From NCBI RefSeq assembly GCF_041248615.1, contig NZ_CP158426.1: a DNA stretch of 64,000 bases; one strand, written 5' to 3'. This document shows positions 20,520-33,317 of this stretch, one piece after another. The stretch's first letter is position 1; each line of letters opens with the position of its first letter. Source of the DNA: Escherichia coli (GTDB taxonomy: Bacteria > Pseudomonadota > Gammaproteobacteria > Enterobacterales > Enterobacteriaceae). A program made the position numbers and the translations under genes. The notes under the pieces were generated by a model. It was given only the letters and a program-made list of their open reading frames with translations. It did not search any database and had not been told where the DNA came from.

Positions 20520-20599
20520 AACCAAACGACTCGGGGTGCCCTTCTGCGTGAAGGCTGAGAAATACCCGTATCACCTGATCTGGATAATGCCAGCGTAGG
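20520..20599 (+). repeat. attL: 80-bp direct repeat, a copy of the thiM TPP aptamer/thi-box lacking the 3' P1 strand and expression platform
   Basis: Base-for-base identical to 33185-33264. Flanking bases differ on both sides. Preceded by native rcnR-thiM intergenic sequence. Confidence 0.9.
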
Positions 20600-20684
20600 T
20601 TGCCAACATTCTGATTAGTATTCATGTGGTTACATTTCTTTTTGTCCGTGTGTAATGCACCTAATGTACAAAAAGAGCGTAAAC

Positions 20685-21986
20685 ATGAGGTACAAAACTC
20701 TTCCATACACGTTTCAAAGAAACGGTAATTACTATCTACAGATTCGGCTTTCGAATGGTCGGATGTATAAAAAATCACTTCTCACTGACAGCTATCGTGA
20801 AGTCTCTGCTTTGATGATTGGTGTTGCTCCGTACATTCCTTTTGTTAAATCATTAGCCATCACAATCCCGATGTTTGATGCCTTTGTTTCAAACCTGATT
20901 ATGTCAAAACTTAGGGCTGTAAAAGTTCCGCTGCTATCACATCAGTCGGTAATTACCCCTGCTACATTCGAGGAACCAGCGACACAAGCCGAACCGCAAA
21001 ACATGCTAACTCTTTCTGATGCGTGGGCTATGTATAAAGCGGAAAAGGGTAAAACATGGACAAAGTCGATCTCAAGGGCGAATGAGCGTTACATGGAAGT
21101 CTTGATGGTTGTCTTGGGAGAGACAACTGACGTAGTTGCGATTTCTAAGCAGGACATCAAGCAGGTGATGGAAGTTGTTGAGAATTTGCCTAAGCGTGTT
21201 GTCCAACCGTATCGCTCAATGAACATCCAGCAACTGATTGAATGTGATGATGTATCACCGAATGAGTTAGTAGGAGTGGAAGCCATTCATAAGCATCTCA
21301 AAATCTACAAATCGCTTTTCAAGACTTTTCTAACAGAAAACAAAGATATTTTGATTAAATCCCCAACTGATGGGGTAGTAGCAGCACCATCTAAAGCAAG
21401 GTTTGGAGCATACAGTTCGGCGGAGATGAAGAAGTTTGTAGAGTGGGCACTTAAGCAGCCAGATGGCTGGCAGAAGTGGATAACATTGTTGTTGGCATAC
21501 ACAGGAGCCAGAAGGGGAGAAATTGCCAAACTGGAAAAATCACAAATAAAATATGATGAGGATAGCCATCGGTATTATTTCCTGATTGCAGAAGGAGGGC
21601 AGGGGAAAACCGAAAATGCTACCCGACAAGTAGTGATACACCCTAAGTTGATCGAATGGGGTTTCATGGAATACGTTGATCGCCAGTGGAAAGAACGGAT
21701 TTTTTCAGAAGTGGCTGGTACAAACATGACGAAGATCGGTAAAGAATTTGCTGATGTGCGTGACCAGCTTGACATTCCGTACTTAGACGATTTTGGACAG
21801 CGGAGGCTTTTGCATAGCATTCGTCATTCTGTTTGCTCTACTGCGATGGCTGGATGGGTAAAGAACATCTTGCATCTGCAACAAACAGTAGGCCATGAGA
21901 AAAGTGGAGGGATCACTAAACGCTACTTACATACGTTCCCACTATCATCAATTTGTTATGTTATTGATGGGATTAGTTGGGTCTGA
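20685..21986 (+). CDS. int: Tyrosine site-specific integrase
   Basis: ORF 20655..21986, likely start MRYKT at 20685. Catalytic signature ARRGEIAKL (Arg), GKTENATR (Lys), HSIRHS (His-x-x-Arg), GHEKSGGITKRYLH (Tyr). Confidence 0.85.
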   Translation: MRYKTLPYTFQRNGNYYLQIRLSNGRMYKKSLLTDSYREVSALMIGVAPYIPFVKSLAITIPMFDAFVSNLIMSKLRAVKVPLLSHQSVITPATFEEPATQAEPQNMLTLSDAWAMYKAEKGKTWTKSISRANERYMEVLMVVLGETTDVVAISKQDIKQVMEVVENLPKRVVQPYRSMNIQQLIECDDVSPNELVGVEAIHKHLKIYKSLFKTFLTENKDILIKSPTDGVVAAPSKARFGAYSSAEMKKFVEWALKQPDGWQKWITLLLAYTGARRGEIAKLEKSQIKYDEDSHRYYFLIAEGGQGKTENATRQVVIHPKLIEWGFMEYVDRQWKERIFSEVAGTNMTKIGKEFADVRDQLDIPYLDDFGQRRLLHSIRHSVCSTAMAGWVKNILHLQQTVGHEKSGGITKRYLHTFPLSSICYVIDGISWV

Positions 21987-22203
21987 AACTGCTAAGAATG
22001 ATAGGAAAAGCTACTTAATGATCCTTAGTTTTGGATGAAATTGAAGATTACAAAGATCTTGAGCGAATAAGAGCGTTTTTTAATCAAAAAAGCCATAAAA
22101 ACTTTTCTTGACTGTATATTAACACAGTGCTTCTACTATGTAGAAGAAATCGACATGAAAAATTTGATATGGTAAATTTTATCCATGATAACAAAAAGGT
22201 ATT

Positions 22204-23106
22204 GTGGATATGTTACTACCAATACGAGTTCATAAACGATTTCTAACTTTATTTAAGACTTTGCAAATTGACGATTGCCCACCGCAATCAACTTTAAATA
22301 TTCATGTACTTAATATCGAAAGCAATGAATTTATATACTGTAAATTAGTTGAAGAATTACGTGACATAATAATTACTTATGTACATTCGAATAGAAGGCT
22401 TGAGGAGTTTAAGGAAAGTTATCCTTCGTATAGCCCTAAACCTTTTTTCGAAGCAATACAAAAATTTCGCAATTATACGTCAAACGAAGGTGAGTTAGGT
22501 GAACTGCTTTTATACGCTTTTCTTGAAACAGGACTAAATGCTCCGAAATTACTTTCCAAAATGCAATTGAAAACAGATTCTAATGATTACATTAAGGGTT
22601 CTGATGGTGTACATCTGTTAGAATTAGATGATGGTTATCAATTAATATTTGGAGAATCAAAGCTCTATGCCGATCTTTTAGAAGGTGCTCGAGAAGCGTT
22701 TGATTCTATTTTAGATTTTAAAAGTAATGGAATGGCATTTGAAAGAGGGCTGATAGATACACACGTTATAAATGAAATGGTTTCAGAAGAAGGTTATGAG
22801 AAAATAAAATCAATTCTTCTTCCTTCTTCTGGCGATGATGGGCCAGATCTTGATTTATCCTTTGGTATATTTCTTGGTTTTGAATTGAAAATAGATAGCT
22901 CACAGTTATCATTGAAAAACAAAGAGTTTAGAGATTGGGTTAATGAGTCCGTGAAACAACATGCTACTCGCGTGGTCAGTACGATACGAAGGAAAATTAT
23001 TAATCATAAATTATATGGTCACGAATTCCACATATATATAGTTCCTTTTACCGATATTGATGTTACACGAAAAAAATTAATTCATGAAATGCTAACAATT
23101 AAGTGA
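22204..23106 (+). CDS. hamA: HamA-like protein (DUF1837-type PD-(D/E)xK nuclease fold) of a Hachiman-type system
   Basis: 300 aa (GTG 22204 or ATG 22210). Motifs EGELGELLLYAFLE (~aa 95-108), GSDGVH (aa 132-137), GESK (aa 150-153). Overlaps the next gene by 4 nt. Confidence 0.7.
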   Translation: MDMLLPIRVHKRFLTLFKTLQIDDCPPQSTLNIHVLNIESNEFIYCKLVEELRDIIITYVHSNRRLEEFKESYPSYSPKPFFEAIQKFRNYTSNEGELGELLLYAFLETGLNAPKLLSKMQLKTDSNDYIKGSDGVHLLELDDGYQLIFGESKLYADLLEGAREAFDSILDFKSNGMAFERGLIDTHVINEMVSEEGYEKIKSILLPSSGDDGPDLDLSFGIFLGFELKIDSSQLSLKNKEFRDWVNESVKQHATRVVSTIRRKIINHKLYGHEFHIYIVPFTDIDVTRKKLIHEMLTIK

Positions 23107-25691
23107 ACACTATGAATGAATTAAATTCAAGTAAAAACATTCATTTGGCAGCTCGTCTTGCAGATGATGCTTTTGAAAGTGCTTATTTTAAAGAAATCAA
23201 TAAGTTTATAAGTGGTTTATACAATTACAGTTTATTTAACTGCGATTCAGATGTTAGTCTCTCCGAGAGTGATAACAATAAAATAGCACACGCTTTGCGT
23301 TTTGCAGATATATTTTCACATTCTTCAAAAGAAAATCATAGATCATGTGCATTTGAAATTATAAGTAGAATAGCCTTATTAAAAAAACATGATCCTTATT
23401 TTAAATTTATAGGTACTGCTGTTATTAATCGGCTTGGGGTTTATGCAGCAGAAAAACTCATATCAAAAGGGGTAAAATTACCCTTAGATAGAGAAGTTGA
23501 TTCTATTATTAAAAAATCAGTTCAGAAAACAGATGAAGATGGAGTATATTTCACTGATAAACAACATGAGTTATACAAACTTTTAAAAAGTAGCAAAACA
23601 ATTAGTTTTGCTGGTCCCACTTCGATGGGAAAGTCATTTGTTATTAATGCATACATTAAGGAAATAACTCTTAAAAAAGAGCTTAAAAATATAGCTTTAA
23701 TTGTTCCTACACGGGCTTTAATAAGCCAAAATGCACTTAAGTTAAAAATTGATATTGCATTGTATAAGAATGAAAGCCCTTATAAAGTTGTTACGACATC
23801 CTACATTATTAATGGTGATGAAAGTAAAAATAAAGGCTATATTTTTATTCTCACCCCAGAAAGGCTGGTTAGTCTCATAAGCACTATTCCTGGACTAATG
23901 ATTGATTATGTTTTTGTAGATGAAGCTCAAAAGTTAACAACAAAAAATGATTCGAGGAGTCTTGTTACTTATTCAGCTATAGAGCAAACAATTAGTAAAA
24001 ATCCTGAGGCAAGATTATTCTTCTCTTCACCTAATTTATCTAATCCTGAAATATTTAATATTTTGTTTGATAGAAAAGACGCTTCGGTATATAGAAATAC
24101 AGAAGGTGCAACTACTCAGAATATGTATTTTATTGATCTTTTAAATAGCAGCTTTAGCTATGTTAATACCGAGAAAAGGACGCTTGAAAAAATAGATGAG
24201 ATCTCTAATACTTACACGAATACAAATGATGTTATCTATAAATTAAATAATGGTAAAAGTAAAATAATTTATTGTGGGGGGATAGAAAGCACGCTTGAGA
24301 GAACACGTAGCTTTATCAATTATCTCAAAATTAATAAGAAAAAAAGAAAGCATTTAAATTTAGAAATATCTTCTGAGATAAGAAACTTTGTTCATGATAA
24401 CTATGAACTTGCAGAAGCCATCAACTATGGTGTTGCTTTCCACTTTGGAAACTTGCCTCAATCGATTCGAGATTTAATTGAGCATCATTTCAAAATAGGA
24501 AATATTGACTATCTATTCTGTACATCAACCCTACTTGAGGGAGTCAATTTACCTGCAAGATCCGTATTTATTCTTACGCATAAAAAAGGCCCCAGTCCAT
24601 TAGAGTCGGTTGATTTTTGGAATCTGGCTGGGAGAGCTGGGCGATTATCTATGGAATTGTCAGGGGATATTTTTTGTATTAGGGATGATAATAAGCTTTG
24701 GAATAAAAAAGCTGTTGATAATATCCTTCTGTCTGACAAAAATAACATTTCATTAAAGCCAAGCTTCTATATTGAAGACGAAAAAAGATTGAACGATTTA
24801 CACCATATAATTACGACTGGTAAAACAGGGAATATTAAAAATGCTGAGTTCCTTAGAACTTTAGGAGATATGATAAGAATAGACACTCTGAGGGATTCTA
24901 AAGAACTTCCTCTTATTAGTTATTTCCAAAGCAGTGGAAAATCAGAAATTTTGTTAAGTGCAGAAAAAAGCACTGAAAATATTACCATGCCAATGAATAT
25001 CCTTTTGGCAAATAGTCATATTGCGATTGATTCGCAGTATCATGCTTTTAAAAAAATAAAAAGCCTTACAGTTAAGGAACTGAAATTATCATGGCAGCCT
25101 ACATACGAAGAAATTAAAGAAAAATTGAATTTGATATTCGATATTTACCAAGTTGAAAAGTTTGCAACAGGTAGAGAACGTCTTTATTTAAATTCAATTC
25201 CATATTATGCAGTATTACTGTTTCAATGGATTCGTGGAAATAGTCTACAGGAAATTATCTCGGGGGCAATTGCTTATAGAAAGAACAAAAGTATATATAT
25301 TAAAAATACACCTGTTCTTTTTGACAGCGAAAACCCAGCTCATTTAACTGCATTAGTTAATGAAACTATAAAAGACATTGAGTTGCGTGTAGGTTACCAG
25401 TTACAAAATTATTTTTCACATTACTGTCAGCTTCTGAATTATGTGTTACAAGGAAATCCAGGGGCAAACTGGTCTCAGTTCATTGAGTTTGGCTCTAATG
25501 AGCCAATAGTATGGCACCTACAAATGATGGGCTTTTCAAGGGATAGTGCAGTTTTTCTCAAGAAGAATTTTTCAAAACATCTTAAACTTGATAATGAAAT
25601 GAATAAACTCATCATAATGGATAAGGAACTGATCAAGCGTTCTTTCAAAAAAGATGGACTACATTACTTAGAAATCCAATCGTTATTATAA
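23103..25691 (+). CDS. hamB: HamB-like SF2 helicase of a Hachiman-type system
   Basis: 862 aa (GTG 23103 overlapping the hamA TGA, or ATG 23112). Walker A GPTSMGKS (nt 23613-23636), motif II DEAQ (nt 23919-23930), motif VI-like AGRAGR. Confidence 0.75.
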   Translation: MNTMNELNSSKNIHLAARLADDAFESAYFKEINKFISGLYNYSLFNCDSDVSLSESDNNKIAHALRFADIFSHSSKENHRSCAFEIISRIALLKKHDPYFKFIGTAVINRLGVYAAEKLISKGVKLPLDREVDSIIKKSVQKTDEDGVYFTDKQHELYKLLKSSKTISFAGPTSMGKSFVINAYIKEITLKKELKNIALIVPTRALISQNALKLKIDIALYKNESPYKVVTTSYIINGDESKNKGYIFILTPERLVSLISTIPGLMIDYVFVDEAQKLTTKNDSRSLVTYSAIEQTISKNPEARLFFSSPNLSNPEIFNILFDRKDASVYRNTEGATTQNMYFIDLLNSSFSYVNTEKRTLEKIDEISNTYTNTNDVIYKLNNGKSKIIYCGGIESTLERTRSFINYLKINKKKRKHLNLEISSEIRNFVHDNYELAEAINYGVAFHFGNLPQSIRDLIEHHFKIGNIDYLFCTSTLLEGVNLPARSVFILTHKKGPSPLESVDFWNLAGRAGRLSMELSGDIFCIRDDNKLWNKKAVDNILLSDKNNISLKPSFYIEDEKRLNDLHHIITTGKTGNIKNAEFLRTLGDMIRIDTLRDSKELPLISYFQSSGKSEILLSAEKSTENITMPMNILLANSHIAIDSQYHAFKKIKSLTVKELKLSWQPTYEEIKEKLNLIFDIYQVEKFATGRERLYLNSIPYYAVLLFQWIRGNSLQEIISGAIAYRKNKSIYIKNTPVLFDSENPAHLTALVNETIKDIELRVGYQLQNYFSHYCQLLNYVLQGNPGANWSQFIEFGSNEPIVWHLQMMGFSRDSAVFLKKNFSKHLKLDNEMNKLIIMDKELIKRSFKKDGLHYLEIQSLL

Positions 25692-25771
25692 AACTGCCGA
25701 ATCAGAGTCTTTTATTGATTCTGATTCGCACTTATATAGTTAAATCAAAAGGAGCATTAAAATTTTTCAGT

Positions 25772-25795
25772 AGCGATTTAGTATGCTAAATCGCT
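25772..25795. terminator. Strong hairpin between the convergent hamB and recombinase genes
   Basis: 10-bp perfect stem AGCGATTTAG/CTAAATCGCT with a TATG loop. There is no clean U tract, so its function as a terminator is uncertain. Confidence 0.35.
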
Positions 25796-25999
25796 GCATA
25801 ACGAATCTGCTTCTAAATCTTGATTAAGTGTTTCGAACTGCCTTGATTGTTTATTGCTACACTTTATAATTAATCGCAACACACAAAACAATACAATGTA
25901 GGCAGTTGCACAGAATTAATTACAGGCACATTATGGATATCGAGAGGATTCGAACAGTTTTAAACTGCAAGCCCTTTGACTTTATCCCCTCCTACTATA

Positions 26000-26575
26000 T
26001 CAGCGTTTGATGCCGCTAATACTGGCAAGCATTTCTTTCTTCACACGAAAAACTGTAGCCCTGCCGCAATCACATAACTTTGCTATCTCGTCTGGTGTAT
26101 TCTTCCCGGCCTGTAACATATCGATAATCTTGTTATGTAGCTCTTTGTTCTTTTGCTTGCCCTTGTACTTCTTAGCCTCTTTAGCAAGAGCAATCCCCTC
26201 ATTGCGACGAGATGCGATCATACCCCGCTCAAATTCTGCAGCGGCTCCCATCATGGTTAGGATAAGGCGTGATTGTGGGGAATTATCAAAACTCATAGAG
26301 TTTGCAAGGAATTGAACAGTGATTCCACGAGCCACGAGGTTATCAATCATTTCCAGCAAATCGCGGGTATTACGTGCAAGGCGATCAATCGAGTGAGTAA
26401 CGAGCGTGTCACCTTCGCGGAGGTGTGAAAGCAGGTTCAACAATTCAGGTCTTTCGCTGGTGGACTTACCTGATTCTTTCTCTGCCACAATTTTGTCACA
26501 AACAGGTTCCAGCACTGCCAACTGACGCTCAAGATTTTGATCCTTTGTTGAGACTCTCGCGTAACCAAAAATCAT
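26000..26575 (-). CDS. Serine recombinase (resolvase/invertase family)
   Basis: 191 aa. N-terminal MIFGYARVSTKDQNLERQ (catalytic Ser) and a C-terminal HTH (TPDEIAKLCDCGRATVFRV). Confidence 0.88.
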   Translation of the reverse strand: MIFGYARVSTKDQNLERQLAVLEPVCDKIVAEKESGKSTSERPELLNLLSHLREGDTLVTHSIDRLARNTRDLLEMIDNLVARGITVQFLANSMSFDNSPQSRLILTMMGAAAEFERGMIASRRNEGIALAKEAKKYKGKQKNKELHNKIIDMLQAGKNTPDEIAKLCDCGRATVFRVKKEMLASISGIKR

Positions 26576-26600
26576 TTTCCTGCCCTCACTTACGTGAAAA

Positions 26601-26664
26601 GTATCATTTGAATTTACTTAATGATACAGTATCATTTAAATGCATTCAACATCTAAATGATACT
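26601..26664. promoter_or_regulatory. res-like recombinase binding sites upstream of the serine recombinase gene
   Basis: Inverted GTATCATT (26601-08)/AATGATAC (26620-27) and AGTATCATTTAAAT (26628-41)/ATCTAAATGATACT (26651-64). That is four copies of one half-site. Confidence 0.55.
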
Positions 26665-27082
26665 AAACGAGACGAGAAAAGCGAGTATCGTTAGGGAGTA
26701 CCCAAAAGAGATTTTTGATCGTGCGTTTTTTAGTCAATGTAGGGTTAGTGAAAAGTTCAGTACCGAGATCTGAGTTCACGGCATTTTGTCGACGGGGTTG
26801 AACCTGATTAGGCGAACGAGATTTTAAATCAGGCGGAATAAAACAAGTTGTACTTTTATCTGAGTAAAAGATCCCTTTAACTTTTTAGTCAGAAATCGTG
26901 ATACTAGGGGTTTGGTTATTTTGTGTCCTTAAGGCCAGTACTTTTAGCGAGGACGAAAAAACGGCCTACATGAGAACGCTTACAGTAACTTAAGTATATT
27001 ATCCAAAAAGTCACTTAACTTAAATCAATTTGGATGCAAAATCGCCACACTTTGCAAGTGAACACATACCGGGCAACAAGCA

Positions 27083-27109
27083 AATAAAAAAGGCCACTTT
27101 CGCGACCTT
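27083..27109 (-). terminator. Intrinsic terminator of the membrane/periplasmic two-gene operon
   Basis: Minus strand AAGGUCGCGAAAGUGGCCUU followed by UUUUAUUU, 17 nt after the stop at 27126. Confidence 0.7.
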
Positions 27110-27125
27110 GTACCAGTACAAACAC

Positions 27126-27485
27126 TCATTCAGAACGATCAAGTACCATATATGCTGGCTGACACATGCTGCCCCGCTCCTGTAGCCAGTAGTAATCAAG
27201 ATCGGCAACACGCACGTCCAATCCAGAATCTACACGGTTGATCTGTAACCGTAGCCCTACAGTATCCTTGTACGATAAACCAGATTTAACATTGTATTTG
27301 TACTTAACACCGTTTTCCTGTTCAAACTGTTTAAGGAAAGGCGTCATTTGTTTCTGAATTTCTTTCAAACAAATAACCTCATTATCAATAGCAAAGGGGG
27401 GTTCTGTTTTTCCATCAGGTACAGCAGCCTGTAAATGAAAGGAAGTACTCAACAATAACAGCATTGCAACAGAAGTCTTTTTCAT
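27126..27485 (-). CDS. Small exported protein of unknown function
   Basis: 119 aa. Sec signal peptide MKKTSVAMLLLLSTSFHLQA|AVP. Lies 43 nt downstream of the preceding gene on the same strand. Confidence 0.7.
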   Translation of the reverse strand: MKKTSVAMLLLLSTSFHLQAAVPDGKTEPPFAIDNEVICLKEIQKQMTPFLKQFEQENGVKYKYNVKSGLSYKDTVGLRLQINRVDSGLDVRVADLDYYWLQERGSMCQPAYMVLDRSE

Positions 27486-27528
27486 TTTAATTCCTTATTA
27501 AAGAACAGTACATTATATTTCAATGGAC

Positions 27529-28569
27529 TTAATAACAATATTTTATATTTCCTTCGGGTTTTCTCATGCATTTAATTCCTTCAGGAATATAATCAGTTAC
27601 GGGAGCAGGTCTGGCATCAGGTCTTGAAAGACGATTGGATATAGAAGACAACAGACTGAAAACACACTCATTAAATGATTTTTGATATTTATTTTTTTCA
27701 TAAAAGTACTGCATGGTGATTTTATCTCTTTCGTATTGCAATTCTTTGCCAAGCTGAATCCTATCCATATCAATTCCATTTCTCATAGCATTAAATCTTT
27801 CGTTCAATAAATTAAATTGAGATTTATTCCATTCATTTAAAGGAAATAAAGAATTGTTAAGCCTTTGCCTACAATTAGATTGCTCGATAGCTGACATGTA
27901 TTCTTTCATACTAACGCCAATATCTAAGTATGTGAGTTGTCCAGCAGTTCTATCAACTGAGTTATTAGGGTAAGATTTAATTTCAGTAAGTATTGACTCT
28001 GTTAATACTGCATTTTCTTCTAAATCTTTGCTAATAGTTATTTGAGCTTGTTCTCTTTTATCCTTATCAAATATTGAAATGTATTTCTTTACTATATCCT
28101 GATTAGCTTTCTCGGCTGCTACTAACGCATCTTGAACCTTCTTTTCCGCCGCTTTAACTCGTTGTTCTTCTACAAATTTCGCGTAGTCATCAGTATTTGT
28201 AATGTGATTTTCACGAGCGATAGAAAACTCTTTACTATCTTTAAAACCAAGTTTTTGTGCTCTGGCTCCATCGCTTGAAGATCGGGCAGAACTTGCCACG
28301 AAAGCGAGCACAATGATCAGTACAGGAACCGTATAATTATTAACGAGTTTATAGGGTAAGAACTTCGCTTTAAGCGTACCATAACCCAAAACAGCCCAGC
28401 CTATCGCGGCAGTACTTGCCAGTAGCTGGCACAATCCAGCGACGGAAAGCATGATTACCGACCAGAAGCCTGTACCGACTGCGAAAAGATCACCAAATTT
28501 CTCCATTGACGCAAGGAATAAAAACACTCCCCAAATGCCATAAAATCCTATTTTCAAATATTTACTCAC
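27529..28569 (-). CDS. Inner-membrane protein (about 3 N-terminal TM helices plus ~240-aa soluble/coiled-coil-like domain), unknown function
   Basis: 346 aa, GTG start with AAAGGA upstream. Hydrophobic segments IGFYGIWGVFLFLASM, FWSVIMLSVAGLCQLLASTAAIGWAVLGYG and VPVLIIVLAFVASSA. Confidence 0.7.
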   Translation of the reverse strand: MSKYLKIGFYGIWGVFLFLASMEKFGDLFAVGTGFWSVIMLSVAGLCQLLASTAAIGWAVLGYGTLKAKFLPYKLVNNYTVPVLIIVLAFVASSARSSSDGARAQKLGFKDSKEFSIARENHITNTDDYAKFVEEQRVKAAEKKVQDALVAAEKANQDIVKKYISIFDKDKREQAQITISKDLEENAVLTESILTEIKSYPNNSVDRTAGQLTYLDIGVSMKEYMSAIEQSNCRQRLNNSLFPLNEWNKSQFNLLNERFNAMRNGIDMDRIQLGKELQYERDKITMQYFYEKNKYQKSFNECVFSLLSSISNRLSRPDARPAPVTDYIPEGIKCMRKPEGNIKYCY

Positions 28570-28789
28570 CGCAATTATCCTTTAATAATTTTCCAAATCG
28601 ATGGTTCGTTCTATTTGTATTATCGACAATAATTCGTTTGCCTTTAGGTAGATCCCTTAAAAAGGAATCCCCCCAAAATTTATAGATTAGCAGTTGTACC
28701 ACTCTCACTGTTTTGTCACTCCCATTATCTTCTCTCAGGTCAAAAGTACGGACTTAAAGCCGTCCGTGTTCAGGTGCTCAAGAGTAGCA

Positions 28790-28900
28790 CGCATATCAAT
28801 AAATGATCGATAAAAACGATCAATTAATGGCTTATTGATCGCTATAACCTATCAATGACTATTAATTCAATACAAATCAATAGGTAAAATCGATCAAGAG
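28790..28900. repeat. Iteron-like cluster of (G)ATCAAT/GATCGA motifs with several GATC sites
   Basis: ATCAAT at 28795, 28851 and 28876; CGATCAAT at 28817; TTGATCG at 28835; GATCGA at 28805; CGATCAAG at 28891. All lie within an ORF-free tract. Confidence 0.45.
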
Positions 28901-29552
28901 GATTCGTCATCCATGAAAGGGGTTATGTATCTGATTTCAATACAGGGAGTATTAGCGATACCATCACGCAAACGCTCTTAAAGCGTAGCTACGGCGTTTT
29001 GTAGGGTTTTTGGTCATTCATGTGTGTCAGTAATGAACATCGCATTCAGGGGCTTCCTGTGCGTTTTGTCCGAAACACCATCATGAAGGGGGACAGATCG
29101 GATCGGGGTCGCTTCGCTCTGGTCAGTACTGGATAGTTCTTTTCCAGTAACTGAAACCGCAGATACCCCACTAAGTACACAAAGGAATTATTTGTAGAAT
29201 AAGTAATGAAATAACAGTCAGTTATGTACTTACTGACAGAACTAAAAACGCGATTAGGTTCGCTCTGTCAGTGACCGAAGGGAACGCAACAGTAGAATCT
29301 AATCCAGCGAACAGTACACGCAAGCGGGTGCTGTTTAATTGTTTTATCTATGTAAACAATGGGATAGCTATCAAGTACTCACTGCGTGAGCACTCTCACT
29401 AACTACCCGAAACAGTTCGCTTGCTTCGCCGCTCCTACTTTCAGGTAGTTAATTCGCTTTCGCTCGTTGTGATGTCCGAAATTTATTACCTATAGTATTA
29501 TAAGGTATTATTTTCCGGACATTTATGTATTTTTATGATGGTGTTCTGGACA

Positions 29553-31028
29553 TCATTTTTTGCTTTTTTGTACTTCCTTTTCGTATTTGTTCCACATAGC
29601 CTTTTGCTCTTCGGGACTGAGTGCTGTATTACCACTGGCAAGAAACACCTTGAACGCTTCTAACTCAAGCCCTGGGTTGCGGCTTTTCCAGCGGCGAAAA
29701 CGCTTAGCGTGATTATCATCAAGAGTGAAACGCTTTTGCTTATTCTTTGAACCTTGCGGCCTGCCTCTCGACCTCTGCTCATCATCAATACCGATATCTA
29801 TATACTCAATATTATCTGTAAGAGATCTGGCTTGCCATTCATCAAAAACATAAACAGTCTGTGTTTCAGTACTGTCAAAATCCCTTGAAATTCCTCGTAG
29901 TACGAACTGGTGTAAACTTTCGTACTCCCTCGCAACATGTATCGCCTCGCCGTCAATCTCAAAGAACAATTCGCACTGTTTAGCCTCTGTTTCAGAGGGA
30001 CGCATACAAGCGAGCCAGACGCACGTGAGCAAGTGTTGGTACTGGTTAAACCCTCTGGCATCCGGGCTTATCTCTGTGCCGTTTTTGAGGCTCTGAGAAT
30101 CGCTTTTGTTCTTCGTCCAGTAGAAATCCTGTCCCTCAAGTTTTTTATCAATAAATGAGTATATTTTTTGTACTTTATCAGGGTTATTAGTCTTCCATGT
30201 CTTCGATAGTTTTTGATTTTTTGAGAAGTAATAAACCTTTAATCTGTCTTTGAGAGCTGTTTTTCGTGTCAGTAATCCTCCAAGTTCAGTACTTTCAAAG
30301 AGTTCTTTATTGCCTTTATAGATCAATGAATTTTCGAAATTAGCTCCGAGAAAGGTGATTGATACGTCTTTGTACTTACTGAGATCTTTCCATGCGGTAA
30401 TATTAAGCTGTTCCTTTTTCGCATCGGTAAAGTACTCATTATTCATGATGAACATATCATTTTCGTTAATTGCTGGTAGCTGGTTCAAAATATTCTTCAG
30501 TACTTCCCCTTGTATTTCTGGTTTTCTTTCTGCCGCAATATACATATTTTTATCATCTAATGTCAGTACATTGTGTATTAATGAATTAAGAATTGTATTT
30601 TTTATATTAGTATCACCCTCATTAATATTCTGAAAAGAGTGAAAATTAGTAACGTCGTCAATATAAATATTACAGTCAGATAACAATTCAGGAGGAATTT
30701 TGAAAAACGTTTTATCTGTTATGAGTAATGTTTTATTACTTCCAGATGAAAGAAAGTTAATAACTGAATTAATAACACTTTCATCTTTTGGTACTGTATC
30801 TGTAATTATATACTCGCAATTATTGATTTGCTTTGCTGTCTGCTTAATAAGTTCTTGAGTGTTCTGTACTAAAATATATTTTTCAGTACTGTTATTGATT
30901 ATATTGCATATAGCAGTAGTTTTACCTGAACCACAAGGGGCGGAGACATACTTAAATTTATTATAAATAGGTGTGGGATTAATCATTTGTACACGCTCCA
31001 TATTGATTAATGTAGAAAGGTCAGCCAT
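29553..31028 (-). CDS. SF2-helicase-like P-loop NTPase with a C-terminal AT-hook/basic tail
   Basis: 491 aa. Walker A APCGSGKTT, Walker B-like NIYIDDV, motif VI-like HQFVLRGISR, and an AT-hook core SRGRPQGSKNK near the C-terminus. Confidence 0.7.
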   Translation of the reverse strand: MADLSTLINMERVQMINPTPIYNKFKYVSAPCGSGKTTAICNIINNSTEKYILVQNTQELIKQTAKQINNCEYIITDTVPKDESVINSVINFLSSGSNKTLLITDKTFFKIPPELLSDCNIYIDDVTNFHSFQNINEGDTNIKNTILNSLIHNVLTLDDKNMYIAAERKPEIQGEVLKNILNQLPAINENDMFIMNNEYFTDAKKEQLNITAWKDLSKYKDVSITFLGANFENSLIYKGNKELFESTELGGLLTRKTALKDRLKVYYFSKNQKLSKTWKTNNPDKVQKIYSFIDKKLEGQDFYWTKNKSDSQSLKNGTEISPDARGFNQYQHLLTCVWLACMRPSETEAKQCELFFEIDGEAIHVAREYESLHQFVLRGISRDFDSTETQTVYVFDEWQARSLTDNIEYIDIGIDDEQRSRGRPQGSKNKQKRFTLDDNHAKRFRRWKSRNPGLELEAFKVFLASGNTALSPEEQKAMWNKYEKEVQKSKK

Positions 31029-31370
31029 TCCAGTGTCTGGCCTTTCGTTGTTTTAGTTATTAGTCTTTTTGAGTTGCGACAACTGCAAGAGAATGTTTAT
31101 AAACAAGTGAAATAAGCAGTTTTACCGCCTCAAAAGCTACAGTCAGTTTCGTAATTATTTTCGAAAGCATCGTAAATTTCACTTCGCTATCTTCTATGCA
31201 AAAATTAGCAGCCTGAGGTATTTAATGATTGAGATGTGGCCTGTTGATAAGAGGGTTTGTATTGCTTGTTCTGCTCTTTGTTAATTTGTGACTTATTCCT
31301 TTCACAATGATCGGCTATGTTTGATAACTCTGTTAGGAAATCACCTATGGCTACCATATTGGATTTGCCC

Positions 31371-32276
31371 CTATATTTCCAGACACCTGTTATCACTTAA
31401 CCCATTACTGGCCTGCTGCCGCAGATATTCCCGTGGCGAGCGATAACCCAGTGCACTATGCGGATGCCATTCGTTATAATGCTCGAACGCCTCTGCAAGG
31501 TTCTTTGCTGCCGTTAACCCGTCTGGTTTAGGCATGATACTGATGTAGTCACGCTTTATCGTTTTCACGAAGCTCTCTGCTATGCCGTTACTCTCCGGAC
31601 TCCGCACCGCCGTGTTCTTCGGTTCAAGCCCCAATATCCGGGCAAACTGCCGTGTTTCATTAGCCCGGTAGCATGAACCATTATCCGTCAGCCACTCTAC
31701 TGGAGACGCCGGAAGCTCGTTGCCGAAGCGGCGTTCCACCGCTCCCAGCATGACGTCCTGTACTGTTTCACTGTCGAAGCCGCCCGTAGTGACTGCCCAG
31801 TGCAGTGCCTCACGGTCACAGCAGTCCAGCGCGAACGTGACTCGCAGTTTTTCTCCGTTATCACAGCGGAACTCGAACCCGTCAGAGCACCATCGTTGAT
31901 TGCTTTCTTTCACGGCCACTTTGCCAGTATGTGCCCGTTTCGATGGCGGTACAGCGGTTTTTCGCTCAAGCAACAGCGCATTCTGGCGCATGATCCGGTA
32001 AACACGTTTGGCATTGATCGCAGGCGTACCATCAAGTTCGGCCTGTCTGCGAAGCAGCGCCCATACCCGACGATAACCATACGTGGGCAGCTCTCCGATA
32101 ACATGGTGTATACGGAGAAGCACATCCGTATCATCTGAGTGACGGCTGCGGCGACCATCTTTCCAGTCATCGGTTCGTCTGAGAATTACGTGCAACTGCG
32201 CACGCGACACCCGGAGACAACGGCTGACTAAGCTTACTCCCCATCCCCGGGCAATAAGGGCGCGTGCGCTATCCAC
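31371..32276 (-). CDS. insD: IS2 transposase OrfB (InsD, DDE domain)
   Basis: 301-aa ORF overlapping orfA in the -1 frame, as in IS3-family elements. Confidence 0.92.
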
Positions 32277-32599
32277 TTTTTTGCACGCCCGTATTCAACG
32301 GCTTCTTTAAGGAGTTCATTTTCCATCGTTTTTTTGCCGAGCAGGCGCTGGAGTTCTTTAATCTGCTTCATGGCAGCAGCAAGTTCAGAGGCAGGAACGA
32401 CCTGCTCTCCTGCGGCCACAGCAGTAAGACTTCCCTCCTGGTATTGCTTGCGCCAGAGAAATAACTGGCTGGCTGCCACACCGTGTTGCCGGGCAACAAG
32501 GGAGACCTTCATTCCCGGTTCAAAACTCTGCTGAACAATAGCGATCTTTTCCTGTGTAGTACGCCGTCTGCGTTTCTCCGGTCCTAAGACATCAATCAT
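32234..32599 (-). CDS. insC: IS2 OrfA (InsC, HTH)
   Basis: Start at [22 protein letters not shown] (ATG 32599), 121 aa. Confidence 0.9.
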
Positions 32600-33184
32600 C
32601 TGCTCTCCAATGACTAGTCTAAAAACTAGTATTAAGACTATCACTTATTTAAGTGATATTGGTTGTCTGGAGATTCATGGGGCCAGTCTACATATAATCA
32701 TGTTCATCTTCTAATTCTTTAAATTTTAATAGAGAAATCTCTTCATAATATTCTTTCATTTTCATATAAATCACCTTTTATTTTTTTGTTGTTAACACAG
32801 GTTTTTTTCTGCACTACACATTATAGCACATAGAATTAATTCGTTTCATTTTCTGTCAATGAAATAGAGTAAAGATAAATGCTTTTATAAAGCACTTATC
32901 ACATCCGTTGCCTTGCTATATATAAAAAGTTCTCCAAACTATACTGGTGTATATTTTCCCCATCAGATACAGTTGTTTTTAAACATTACAATGTTGGATT
33001 CTTGGTTCCAAATAAATCGAGCAACTATTAGTGTTTCAAAATGAAGTTGGGAGCTATTCCTTAATTCGTATGAGGTACAAAATGGGGTACTCGGTGGGGT
33101 ACAGCGTGTATAAGTGACGTCACCACGGGTAAACTTGCATCGGCGAGCAACTTAACCTAAGCTGACAAAAATTAAGAGAAATGT

Positions 33185-33264
33185 AACCAAACGACTCGGG
33201 GTGCCCTTCTGCGTGAAGGCTGAGAAATACCCGTATCACCTGATCTGGATAATGCCAGCGTAGG
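33185..33264 (+). repeat. attR: 80-bp direct repeat (thi-box aptamer copy contiguous with the native thiM expression platform)
   Basis: Identical to 20520-20599. Confidence 0.9.
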
Positions 33265-33317
33265 GAAGTCACGGACCACCAGGTCATTGCTTCTTCACGT
33301 TATGGCAGGAGCAAACT
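33185..33317 (+). promoter_or_regulatory. thiM TPP riboswitch (aptamer plus SD-sequestering expression platform)
   Basis: Contains the thi-box CTGAGAAATACCCGTATCACCTGATCTGGATAATGCCAGCGTAGGGAAGTC. GGCAGGAGCAAACT then precedes the ATG of thiM. Confidence 0.88.

Follow-up and report, generated by a model that had tools for sequence, protein, structure and literature searches.

A two-gene operon on the minus strand of an Escherichia coli chromosome, located within a 64,000-nt stretch of contig NZ_CP158426.1 that was analysed as a whole (hereafter the window), encodes a 346-amino-acid (aa) protein with a predicted membrane tether and a 119-aa protein (p119) that is its predicted secreted partner. 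As judged by library searches, the two proteins define uncharacterised families, and their architecture, in which a constant anchor and stalk carry swappable heads and are accompanied by a secreted partner, is without a described counterpart. The pair belongs to the conserved backbone of a family of small, site-specific chromosomal integrative islands of Enterobacterales and Aeromonas with interchangeable anti-phage cargo, which in the window is a Hachiman system. We tentatively interpret the pair as a non-enzymatic periplasmic binding module that might neutralise a phage protein at the cell envelope, by analogy with the Imm and Spackle proteins of phage T4; this is the interpretation we favour, and it is far from assured.

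The operon and its products

The operon comprises the following features:
27529 to 28569, minus strand: gene for the predicted 346-aa tethered periplasmic protein (open reading frame with GTG start, AAGGA ribosome-binding site, homologous clusters, dN/dS)
27126 to 27485, minus strand: gene for the predicted 119-aa secreted partner, p119 (open reading frame, homologue alignment, AlphaFold2 (AF2) model, dN/dS)
27080 to 27109, minus strand: intrinsic terminator of the two-gene operon (8-bp stem at 27109-27090, GAAA loop and T-run TTTTATTT)

The reading frame of the 346-aa protein starts with GTG at position 28569, ends at 27529 and closes with the C-terminal sequence CMRKPEGNIKYCY, and that of p119 follows after a spacer of 43 nt, from an ATG at 27485 to position 27126. 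An AAGGA ribosome-binding site is present 8 nt 5' of the first start codon (28578-28582) and 6 nt 5' of the second. Both products are labelled hypothetical in RefSeq; homologous protein clusters numbered 106 for the 346-aa protein and 204 for p119. The ratio of nonsynonymous to synonymous substitution rates (dN/dS) between diverged copies was 0.16-0.22 for the partner, 0.26-0.30 for the N-terminal module of the 346-aa protein and 0.26-0.47 for its C-terminal domain; both genes are under purifying selection and are more than chance open reading frames.

A preliminary description of this DNA had proposed the two reading frames, the 43-nt gap and the terminator, all of which are present at the coordinates given above. 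It had also proposed about three N-terminal transmembrane (TM) helices and a charged, helix-rich soluble domain in the 346-aa protein and a Sec signal peptide on the 119-aa protein, in agreement with three hydrophobic segments in the hydropathy profile, an all-helical AF2 model, and the drift of residues 1-20 of p119 among homologues with conservation setting in at the mature N-terminus. No catalytic motif had been recognised, and library scans of both proteins likewise gave neither a motif nor a family.

Anchor, stalk and exchangeable head of the tethered protein

Alignments divided the 346-aa protein into two parts:
28075 to 28569, minus strand: conserved N-terminal module, residues 1-165 (homologue alignments, hydropathy and charge, AF2 model)
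27532 to 28074, minus strand: predicted exchangeable periplasmic head of type A1, residues 166-346 (alignments, AF2 model, clustering of heads)

The three TM segments of the N-terminal module lie at 28551-28504, 28473-28381 and 28329-28285 (residues ~7-22, 33-63 and 81-95), and the distribution of charge (+2 at the N-terminus, net -1 in loop 1 and +3 in loop 2) has the pattern of an N-in/C-out protein. Within the module there is a near-invariant juxtamembrane motif, SSSDxxRAQKLGFKDxKEFxIARENxITNxxDYAKF (~28284-28165), which was still recognisable in relatives of 29-31% identity from Aeromonas and metagenomes, and the module ends in an Ala/Lys/Glu-rich helical stalk. The AF2 model, which was built with 19 homologues, contains helices at residues 3-30, 35-62 and 80-107 followed by a helical domain with a predicted local distance difference test (pLDDT) score of 80-95; confidence was high for residues 100-310, and the model terminates in a small beta-hairpin bracketed by cysteines. 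This hairpin closes the all-helical A1 head, in which C233, C302, C334 and C345 are invariant.

The 114 proteins that share this anchor (anchor 1) carried six unrelated head clusters, of which type B was the most frequent (82 proteins), followed by type A (27, including the window's copy), type C (2) and three singletons. A second anchor, consisting of a two-TM hairpin with a basic loop, bears the type-A head and a further head, type D, and a type-A head was also found behind a Sec signal peptide and an LprI domain in the protein P0239. Across these alignments the predicted periplasmic tip varies and the membrane part does not, and a constant anchor with six unrelated heads resembles an arms race. 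Switching of the head by an invertase, of the type of Mu Gin or P1 Cin, was considered and rejected, as only short inverted repeats at chance level were found, with neither flanking inverted sites nor an alternative cassette.

Both products are predicted to face the periplasm, based on three independent lines of evidence: the positive-inside charges of the anchor, the invariant cysteines (four in the head and two in the partner) and the occurrence of the head behind a Sec signal peptide or on a second outward-facing anchor.

The secreted partner and its variants

The signal peptide of p119 (27485-27426) has a predicted cleavage site between ...HLQA and AVPDG, resulting in a mature protein of 99 aa, and conservation among homologues starts abruptly at the mature N-terminus with xVPDGK. 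Cysteines C39 and C108 are invariant, and the AF2 model consists of one helix packed against a four-stranded sheet. Partners of the p119 type are more than 70% identical across Enterobacterales, and partners with 73-78% identity to that of the window were found behind heads A1, B and D as well as behind an anchor-2/type-A protein in locus L030 (L numbers denote individual loci among those compared).

Other elements have further small secreted domains as partner, in varied fusions. The LprI/DUF1311 domain (PF07007) was identified in the partner variants of L007, L014 and L021 and in P0239; the L014 partner scored 25.3 bits against a cut-off of 22, and the assignment for L007 was taken from precomputed Pfam annotation. 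LprI was the sole family recognised by Pfam in the other head and partner variants. The partner of L014 combines LprI with the modules X118 and p105 and that of L021 combines LprI with p105, and one partner module gave a weak match to Imm27 (E = 0.018) that fell below the cut-off. These partners and P0239 share with known LprI/DUF1311 proteins the domain itself, a periplasmic location and cysteines; the window's own partner and head, in contrast, are without LprI similarity, with no Pfam match to PF07007 at E <= 1 in either the 119-aa or the 346-aa protein. In P0239, the LprI domain shared 63% identity with its counterpart in the L014 partner, and the type-A domain shared 43% with head A2. Apart from this fusion, homology between tethered heads and soluble partners was looked for and none was detectable. 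Nearly all head and partner domains hold two or four cysteines and, judged from the combinations encountered, head and partner types are shuffled between elements.

The Morganella locus L025 (6100-7010) contains an anchor-2/type-D gene that is located 5' of the partner gene and is a pseudogene with in-frame stops, while the partner, of the p119 type, is intact. A second, intact anchor-2/type-A gene is present elsewhere in the same element.

These combinations bear on several explanations of the pair. A constant N-terminal part followed by unrelated, exchangeable C-terminal domains and a small downstream reading frame is also the layout of polymorphic toxin-immunity loci (contact-dependent growth inhibition (CDI), Rhs and colicin-like systems), but here the N-terminus is a three-TM anchor instead of a secretion or delivery domain and there is no recognisable toxin domain, none of the head types matching a toxin family. 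A toxin-immunity pairing of this polymorphic kind was rejected because head and downstream gene do not co-vary. The same lack of co-variation counts against an abortive-infection or addiction module, in which the three-TM protein would act as a toxin that damages the membrane, with the secreted protein serving in the periplasm as its antidote or regulator. Such a module would be in keeping with a multi-TM protein on a defence island and with the decay of the TM-protein gene beside an intact partner in Morganella, which is the order of loss expected of a toxin and its antidote. However, it is the periplasmic tip that varies and not the membrane part, the same heads occur on a second, unrelated anchor, a TM-protein gene without an adjoining partner gene exists in L025, and PADLOC gave no match, so that we regard this explanation as quite improbable. 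The abortive-infection effector suggested in the preliminary description is disfavoured accordingly, as p119-type partners stand behind heads A1, B and D and the anchor-2/type-A protein without co-variation.

The LprI-containing partners raise a different explanation. LprI/DUF1311 domains have been predicted to be immunity proteins of type VI secretion systems (T6SS) against lysozyme-like effectors (PMC9796082, PMC12135965). Together with the construction of the L014 and L021 partners as modular fusions of small cysteine-containing domains, and with the Imm27 match below the cut-off, this prediction would be consistent with a small 'polyimmunity' locus that confers acquired protection from toxins which competing bacteria direct at the periplasm, for example muramidases or amidases of T6SS, pore-formers or colicin-like proteins. 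We consider this unlikely, since in all sampled contexts the pair was found only in this island family and never beside a toxin or T6SS gene; in addition, the SOS-type inducible control present in several relatives (see below) is ill-suited to pre-emptive immunity, and immunity proteins do not typically have a conserved anchor whose juxtamembrane motif is invariant.

Distribution of the pair

Approximately 30 related loci from 12 or more genera were compared, including loci from Escherichia, Klebsiella, Raoultella, Enterobacter, Leclercia, Yersinia, Rahnella, Morganella, Pantoea, Kosakonia and Aeromonas, as well as from metagenomes. The backbone that was kept among them consists of a ResIII-like gene, a non-coding region, the tethered protein, the secreted partner and a serine recombinase, with a DUF2188 gene additionally present in elements at the ffs site. 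The integrases differ: elements at rcnR-thiM and ffs-ybaA have a tyrosine integrase, those in ppdD and at yggR-yggS a large serine recombinase; compared with the window, L001, L002, L018 and L031 have the same backbone with different integrases and insertion sites, and in L031-33 the orientation of the backbone relative to the integrase is reversed. Cargo across the loci included Hachiman, cyclic oligonucleotide-based anti-phage signalling systems (CBASS), a STAND ATPase, reverse transcriptases, DarTG, DUF4326/DUF488/DuOB, an HNH nuclease and an AAA_15/21 ATPase. L007 and L008 had no defence cargo and had kept the pair, which argues that the pair is part of the backbone and not of the cargo.

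The preliminary description had asked whether the two genes co-occur and whether they are found in a defence context. In all intact loci sampled, the gene of the tethered protein was directly followed by that of the secreted partner at a distance of 12-70 nt, and according to the sampled loci and to tblastn searches of phages and plasmids the pair is confined to chromosomal integrative islands of the family that carries anti-phage cargo. The same description had regarded the pair as a candidate module beside defence genes; the neighbours are indeed a defence system, Hachiman, but the pair itself is conserved backbone that is present even without cargo. Among complete E. coli genomes, the N-terminal module was detected in 52 of 5426, the ResIII-like gene in 53 of 5426 and the partner in 76 of 5426, in every case on a chromosome; the surplus partner copies come after the second anchor type.

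In L002, the block comprising the non-coding region, the tethered protein and the partner was 88-96% identical to that of the window at the nucleotide level, whereas the ResIII-like proteins were just 55% and the resolvases 31% identical, indicating that the block moves between backbones by recombination.

The strict gene order, the short spacers and their maintenance across 12 or more genera weigh against the view that these are two independent 'moron' genes without a joint function, serving for example envelope homeostasis or virulence. A precedent for such genes is ScwA of Salmonella, a periplasmic protein with an LprI domain and two disulfides that was acquired horizontally and alters the levels of peptidoglycan hydrolases (PMC7933661), and a partner type that is not tied to the head type would also fit. 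That a head and a partner-type domain are naturally fused in P0239 speaks against independence, however, and ScwA is encoded by a stand-alone chromosomal gene in a different context. We hold two unconnected genes to be highly improbable, and ScwA was rejected as a relative on account of its stand-alone location elsewhere in the chromosome.

Islands of this appearance have been catalogued before. Hochhauser et al. (2023; PMC10121019) described 'integrase-only' islands of E. coli whose mobility was unexplained, among them hotspot #6 at yggS-yggR, and assigned the mobile genetic element type 'None' to an rcnR-thiM island. The elements compared here are like those islands in being small and in combining an integrase or recombinase and defence cargo without known mobility machinery; they differ in that the paper does not describe a backbone of helicase-like gene, structured region, tethered protein with partner, and resolvase. 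No type IV secretion system (T4SS) or relaxase genes were found in the island. Conjugative entry exclusion of the TraS/Eex/TrbK type was rejected, as the island is without a T4SS or relaxase and the pair is represented on plasmids only by partial matches on Pantoea megaplasmids.

Searches for known families

Neither protein matched an entry in Pfam, NCBIfam, PHROGs or PADLOC, and PADLOC-DB v2 contained no system-protein match for the 346-aa protein, the 119-aa protein or the product of the neighbouring ResIII-like gene. Profiles of both proteins gave no match to PDB sequences, and there was no viral match in BFVD at E <= 0.001. No match to either protein was obtained by tblastn against 50,697 phage records, and the partial matches mentioned above were the only ones in 72,556 plasmids. 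A profile search of 1.84 billion cluster representatives returned just 34 relatives, which indicates that the family is narrow. Neither protein turned up in the literature, whether the search went by accession or by topic.

A candidate periplasmic exclusion module

The absence of a recognisable family or catalytic motif, together with the predicted folds, a helical bundle for the head and a cystatin/NTF2-like alpha+beta fold for the partner, argues for binders and not for enzymes, and the P0239 fusion and the adjacency of the two genes in every intact locus argue that the two products act together. We infer that the products are binders which act as a pair, with the head giving specificity. 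In the mechanism we envisage, the head would be exposed to the periplasm, with disulfide bonds to stabilise it, and the tethered head and the soluble partner would form a 'guard' module there. The head would be the specificity determinant and, with the partner, would bind and neutralise a foreign periplasm-acting protein, the likeliest target being a tail protein, an ejection protein or the tail lysozyme of a phage whose DNA is entering the cell. The outcome would be superinfection exclusion at the envelope, ahead of cytoplasmic cargo such as the Hachiman system of this island.

The LprI protein of Mycobacterium tuberculosis is a lysozyme inhibitor, and the presence of this lysozyme-inhibitor domain in some partners fits a parallel with Spackle and the tail lysozyme. 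Small envelope proteins of mobile elements, such as HK97 gp15, P22 SieA, lactococcal Sie2009, streptococcal Ltp, T5 Llp and Cor, bind to and thereby block receptors or the entry of phage DNA; they form a diverse, poorly conserved group in which enzymatic motifs are absent. None of them is homologous to the pair, as judged by the lack of a PHROG or Pfam match, and we know of no such exclusion protein with a constant anchor, swappable heads and a secreted partner. The closest analogy is with phage T4, in which Spackle, a small periplasmic protein with a disulfide bond, inhibits the incoming tail lysozyme gp5 non-enzymatically and works alongside Imm (PMC7677548). Both cases comprise a pair of mobile-element proteins, one of the membrane and one small, Sec-exported, disulfide-bonded and periplasmic (the latter predicted here). 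The two differ in that Spackle is a 75-aa helical bundle and p119 an alpha+beta protein, with no detectable relationship in sequence or fold, and in that the pair described here includes a large exchangeable periplasmic head on a stalk and is encoded by an integrative island that is not a phage.

Several observations weigh against an exclusion module. No similarity in sequence or fold to known exclusion proteins was detected, and neither tblastn nor BFVD revealed a phage homologue. The window's own partner is not LprI-like, and the partner does not co-vary with the head, which makes its part in specificity uncertain. Retention of the module by cargo-free backbones means that it may serve the element rather than the host. 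Finally, in at least four lineages the operon is the rightward one, on the Cro/Ner side of an S24-repressor switch (see below), which suggests induced and not standing expression.

Upstream region and regulatory context

The operon is preceded by an unusually well conserved region:
28570 to 29552, minus strand: conserved non-coding region directly upstream of the operon (alignment of seven elements, folding, blastn)

Over these 983 nt, mean column identity was 83% in seven elements from several genera (including L002), higher than in the flanking genes, and blastn showed 81-97% identity wherever the region was detected; it was partial in L025 and L027/28 and present as fragments in L017. No small open reading frame within it was intact in all copies, and the indels are not multiples of three. 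The first 496 nt (~29060-29555) had a minimum free energy z-score of -7.5 on the gene-sense strand and of -5.4 on the antisense strand relative to shuffled controls, and form a domain closed by a long-range helix of ~17-21 bp with arms at 29532-29552 and 29067-29087. Rfam contained no family for the region. RNAalifold predicted 216 pairs, five of them with compensatory changes, and an unfavourable covariation term, an outcome of little power given seven sequences of ~87% identity.

A cluster of TTGATCG...ATCAA palindromes is located at 28804-28897, in the promoter-proximal part, with four GATC sites in ~100 nt and AT-rich 13-mers that start with GATC; all elements have kept the cluster, and L017 retains a fragment upstream of its anchor-2 gene. 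The 13-mers resemble the repeats of the unwinding element of oriC. A 63-nt piece of the structured region has a second copy of 81% identity upstream of the ResIII-like gene in L003 (5506-5568), and likewise in L004-6 and L011, which places the motif on both sides of the ResIII-like gene. The upstream region could possibly be an origin beside the helicase-like gene, a single-strand DNA signal, a site of transfer or packaging, or a structured RNA.

A different context was found in relatives from Yersinia, Rahnella, Morganella and a metagenome. There, a Ner/Cro-like HTH_35 gene precedes the gene of the tethered protein by 12-60 nt and is divergent from a gene encoding an S24-peptidase (LexA/CI-like) repressor, and in these relatives the placement suggests expression upon derepression, by SOS or induction. 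The S24/Ner switch loci are L022 (5419-7357), L012 (9006-11132), L030 (1787-4078) and L025 (10913-12760), and the elements with this switch are without the ResIII-like gene and the long non-coding region. Aeromonas has a remnant of the arrangement, and the window's copy is without the switch.

Phage satellites of the phage-inducible chromosomal island (PICI) or P4-like kind combine an integrase, a repressor switch and a replication module beside its origin with genes for packaging or capsid redirection. The island has an integrase and a helicase-like gene with an adjoining structured, GATC-rich region, and some relatives have a CI/Ner switch; packaging or capsid genes were not seen. This context gives rise to another explanation, that of an induced function in the life cycle of the element itself. 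Here the module would act at the exit of phage from the cell: in the periplasm, the tethered head and its partner would attach to proteins of phage lysis (spanins, endolysin or a holin's periplasmic domain) and, upon induction by SOS or a helper phage, lysis would be delayed or advanced to the benefit of the hitchhiking element. The RI antiholin of T4 and the LidI protein of phage-inducible chromosomal island-like elements (PLE) are comparable. We regard lysis control as possible but doubtful. It agrees with the module being backbone and not cargo, with the position of the tethered gene right after the Ner/Cro gene and opposite a divergent S24 repressor in the four groups of relatives named above, and with the place of the window's operon after a helicase-like gene and a structured, GATC-rich, origin-like region; moreover, LprI-type partners would suit the inhibition of a lysozyme-type endolysin, and head polymorphism could track different helper phages. 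Against this, no packaging, capsid or transfer gene marks the element as a satellite, there is no known helper phage, the S24/Ner switch is missing from the window's copy, and the proteins gave no sign of similarity to holins, antiholins or spanins, the partner being without a lipobox. A spanin pair of the Rz/Rz1 type was rejected specifically, since no lipobox is conserved in the partner, whose mature form opens with xVPDGK, and no holin or endolysin is encoded nearby. The probability that remains after periplasmic exclusion and the four other explanations goes to functions outside these five.

The island surrounding the pair

The pair is located on an island of 12.6 kb (~20600-33184), flanked on both sides by a perfect direct repeat of 80 bp. 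Besides the operon and the non-coding region, the island and its ends comprise:
20520 to 20599, plus strand: left attachment site (attL), left 80-bp repeat, a partial duplicate of the thiM thiamine pyrophosphate (TPP) riboswitch (Rfam RF00059, 58 bits)
20655 to 21986, plus strand: tyrosine integrase of the island (Pfam Phage_integrase; 84% identical copy in Leclercia with the same backbone)
22204 to 25691, plus strand: Hachiman cargo, HamA at 22204-23106 (PADLOC, E=2e-120) and HamB at 23103-25691 (PADLOC, E=8e-296)
26000 to 26575, minus strand: small serine recombinase of the resolvase/invertase type, part of the backbone, between Hachiman and the pair (family matches)
29553 to 31028, minus strand: ResIII-like, superfamily 2 helicase-like backbone gene encoding 491 aa (Pfam ResIII at the N-terminus, phrog_2467)
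31371 to 32644, minus strand: IS3-family insertion sequence, outside the module (family matches; two open reading frames, typical of a frameshifted transposase)
33185 to 33264, plus strand: right attachment site (attR), right 80-bp repeat inside the intact thiM TPP riboswitch at 33187-33283 (Rfam RF00059, 71.2 bits)

The order of genes is therefore tyrosine integrase, HamA/HamB, serine recombinase, the pair, the 983-nt non-coding region, the ResIII-like gene and IS3. The 80-bp repeat represents most of the aptamer of the thiM TPP riboswitch and both copies scored above the Rfam threshold, indicating that the element integrated into the thiM riboswitch and regenerated it; the partial copy was left directly upstream of the island's own integrase gene. 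Beside the pair, the serine recombinase was 77-95% identical, even in Aeromonas (88%) and the metagenomic relative, the other genes being far more diverged. GTATCAT/ATGATAC repeats just upstream of its gene, at ~26600-26665, look like a res-type site. The ResIII-like gene was found beside the pair in most loci, and its product is possibly a replication protein of the element. The IS3 element lies between this gene and attR and may have disrupted the right end of the island.

Implications

The likeliest function of the pair would be of a known kind, periplasmic exclusion or neutralisation, and it is the protein families and the architecture that are new. A broader view, which we consider rather improbable, is that the pair is the envelope-acting arm of an unrecognised class of hitchhiking elements, its interchangeable heads sensing or neutralising different phage proteins once an SOS-type switch or the element's origin-proximal promoter has turned it on; equally speculative is the backbone that such a class would have, made up of the helicase-like gene, a ~500-nt structured RNA or single-stranded DNA element, the resolvase and swappable integrases. 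If this were true, the pair would represent a new modular form of periplasmic phage recognition or lysis takeover, beyond a simple exclusion protein.

The comparison of loci means that many catalogued 'integrase-only' islands, for which neither a backbone nor a means of mobility was known, have a common conserved core that includes this two-protein module. If the pair does act as an envelope block, it would be a new and widespread first-line barrier in Escherichia, Klebsiella, Enterobacter, Yersinia, Serratia, Pectobacterium, Morganella and Aeromonas that travels with cytoplasmic systems such as Hachiman and CBASS, and the head types would form a readable code of specificity. If it serves the life cycle of the element instead, the module would provide a handle on how these islands move.

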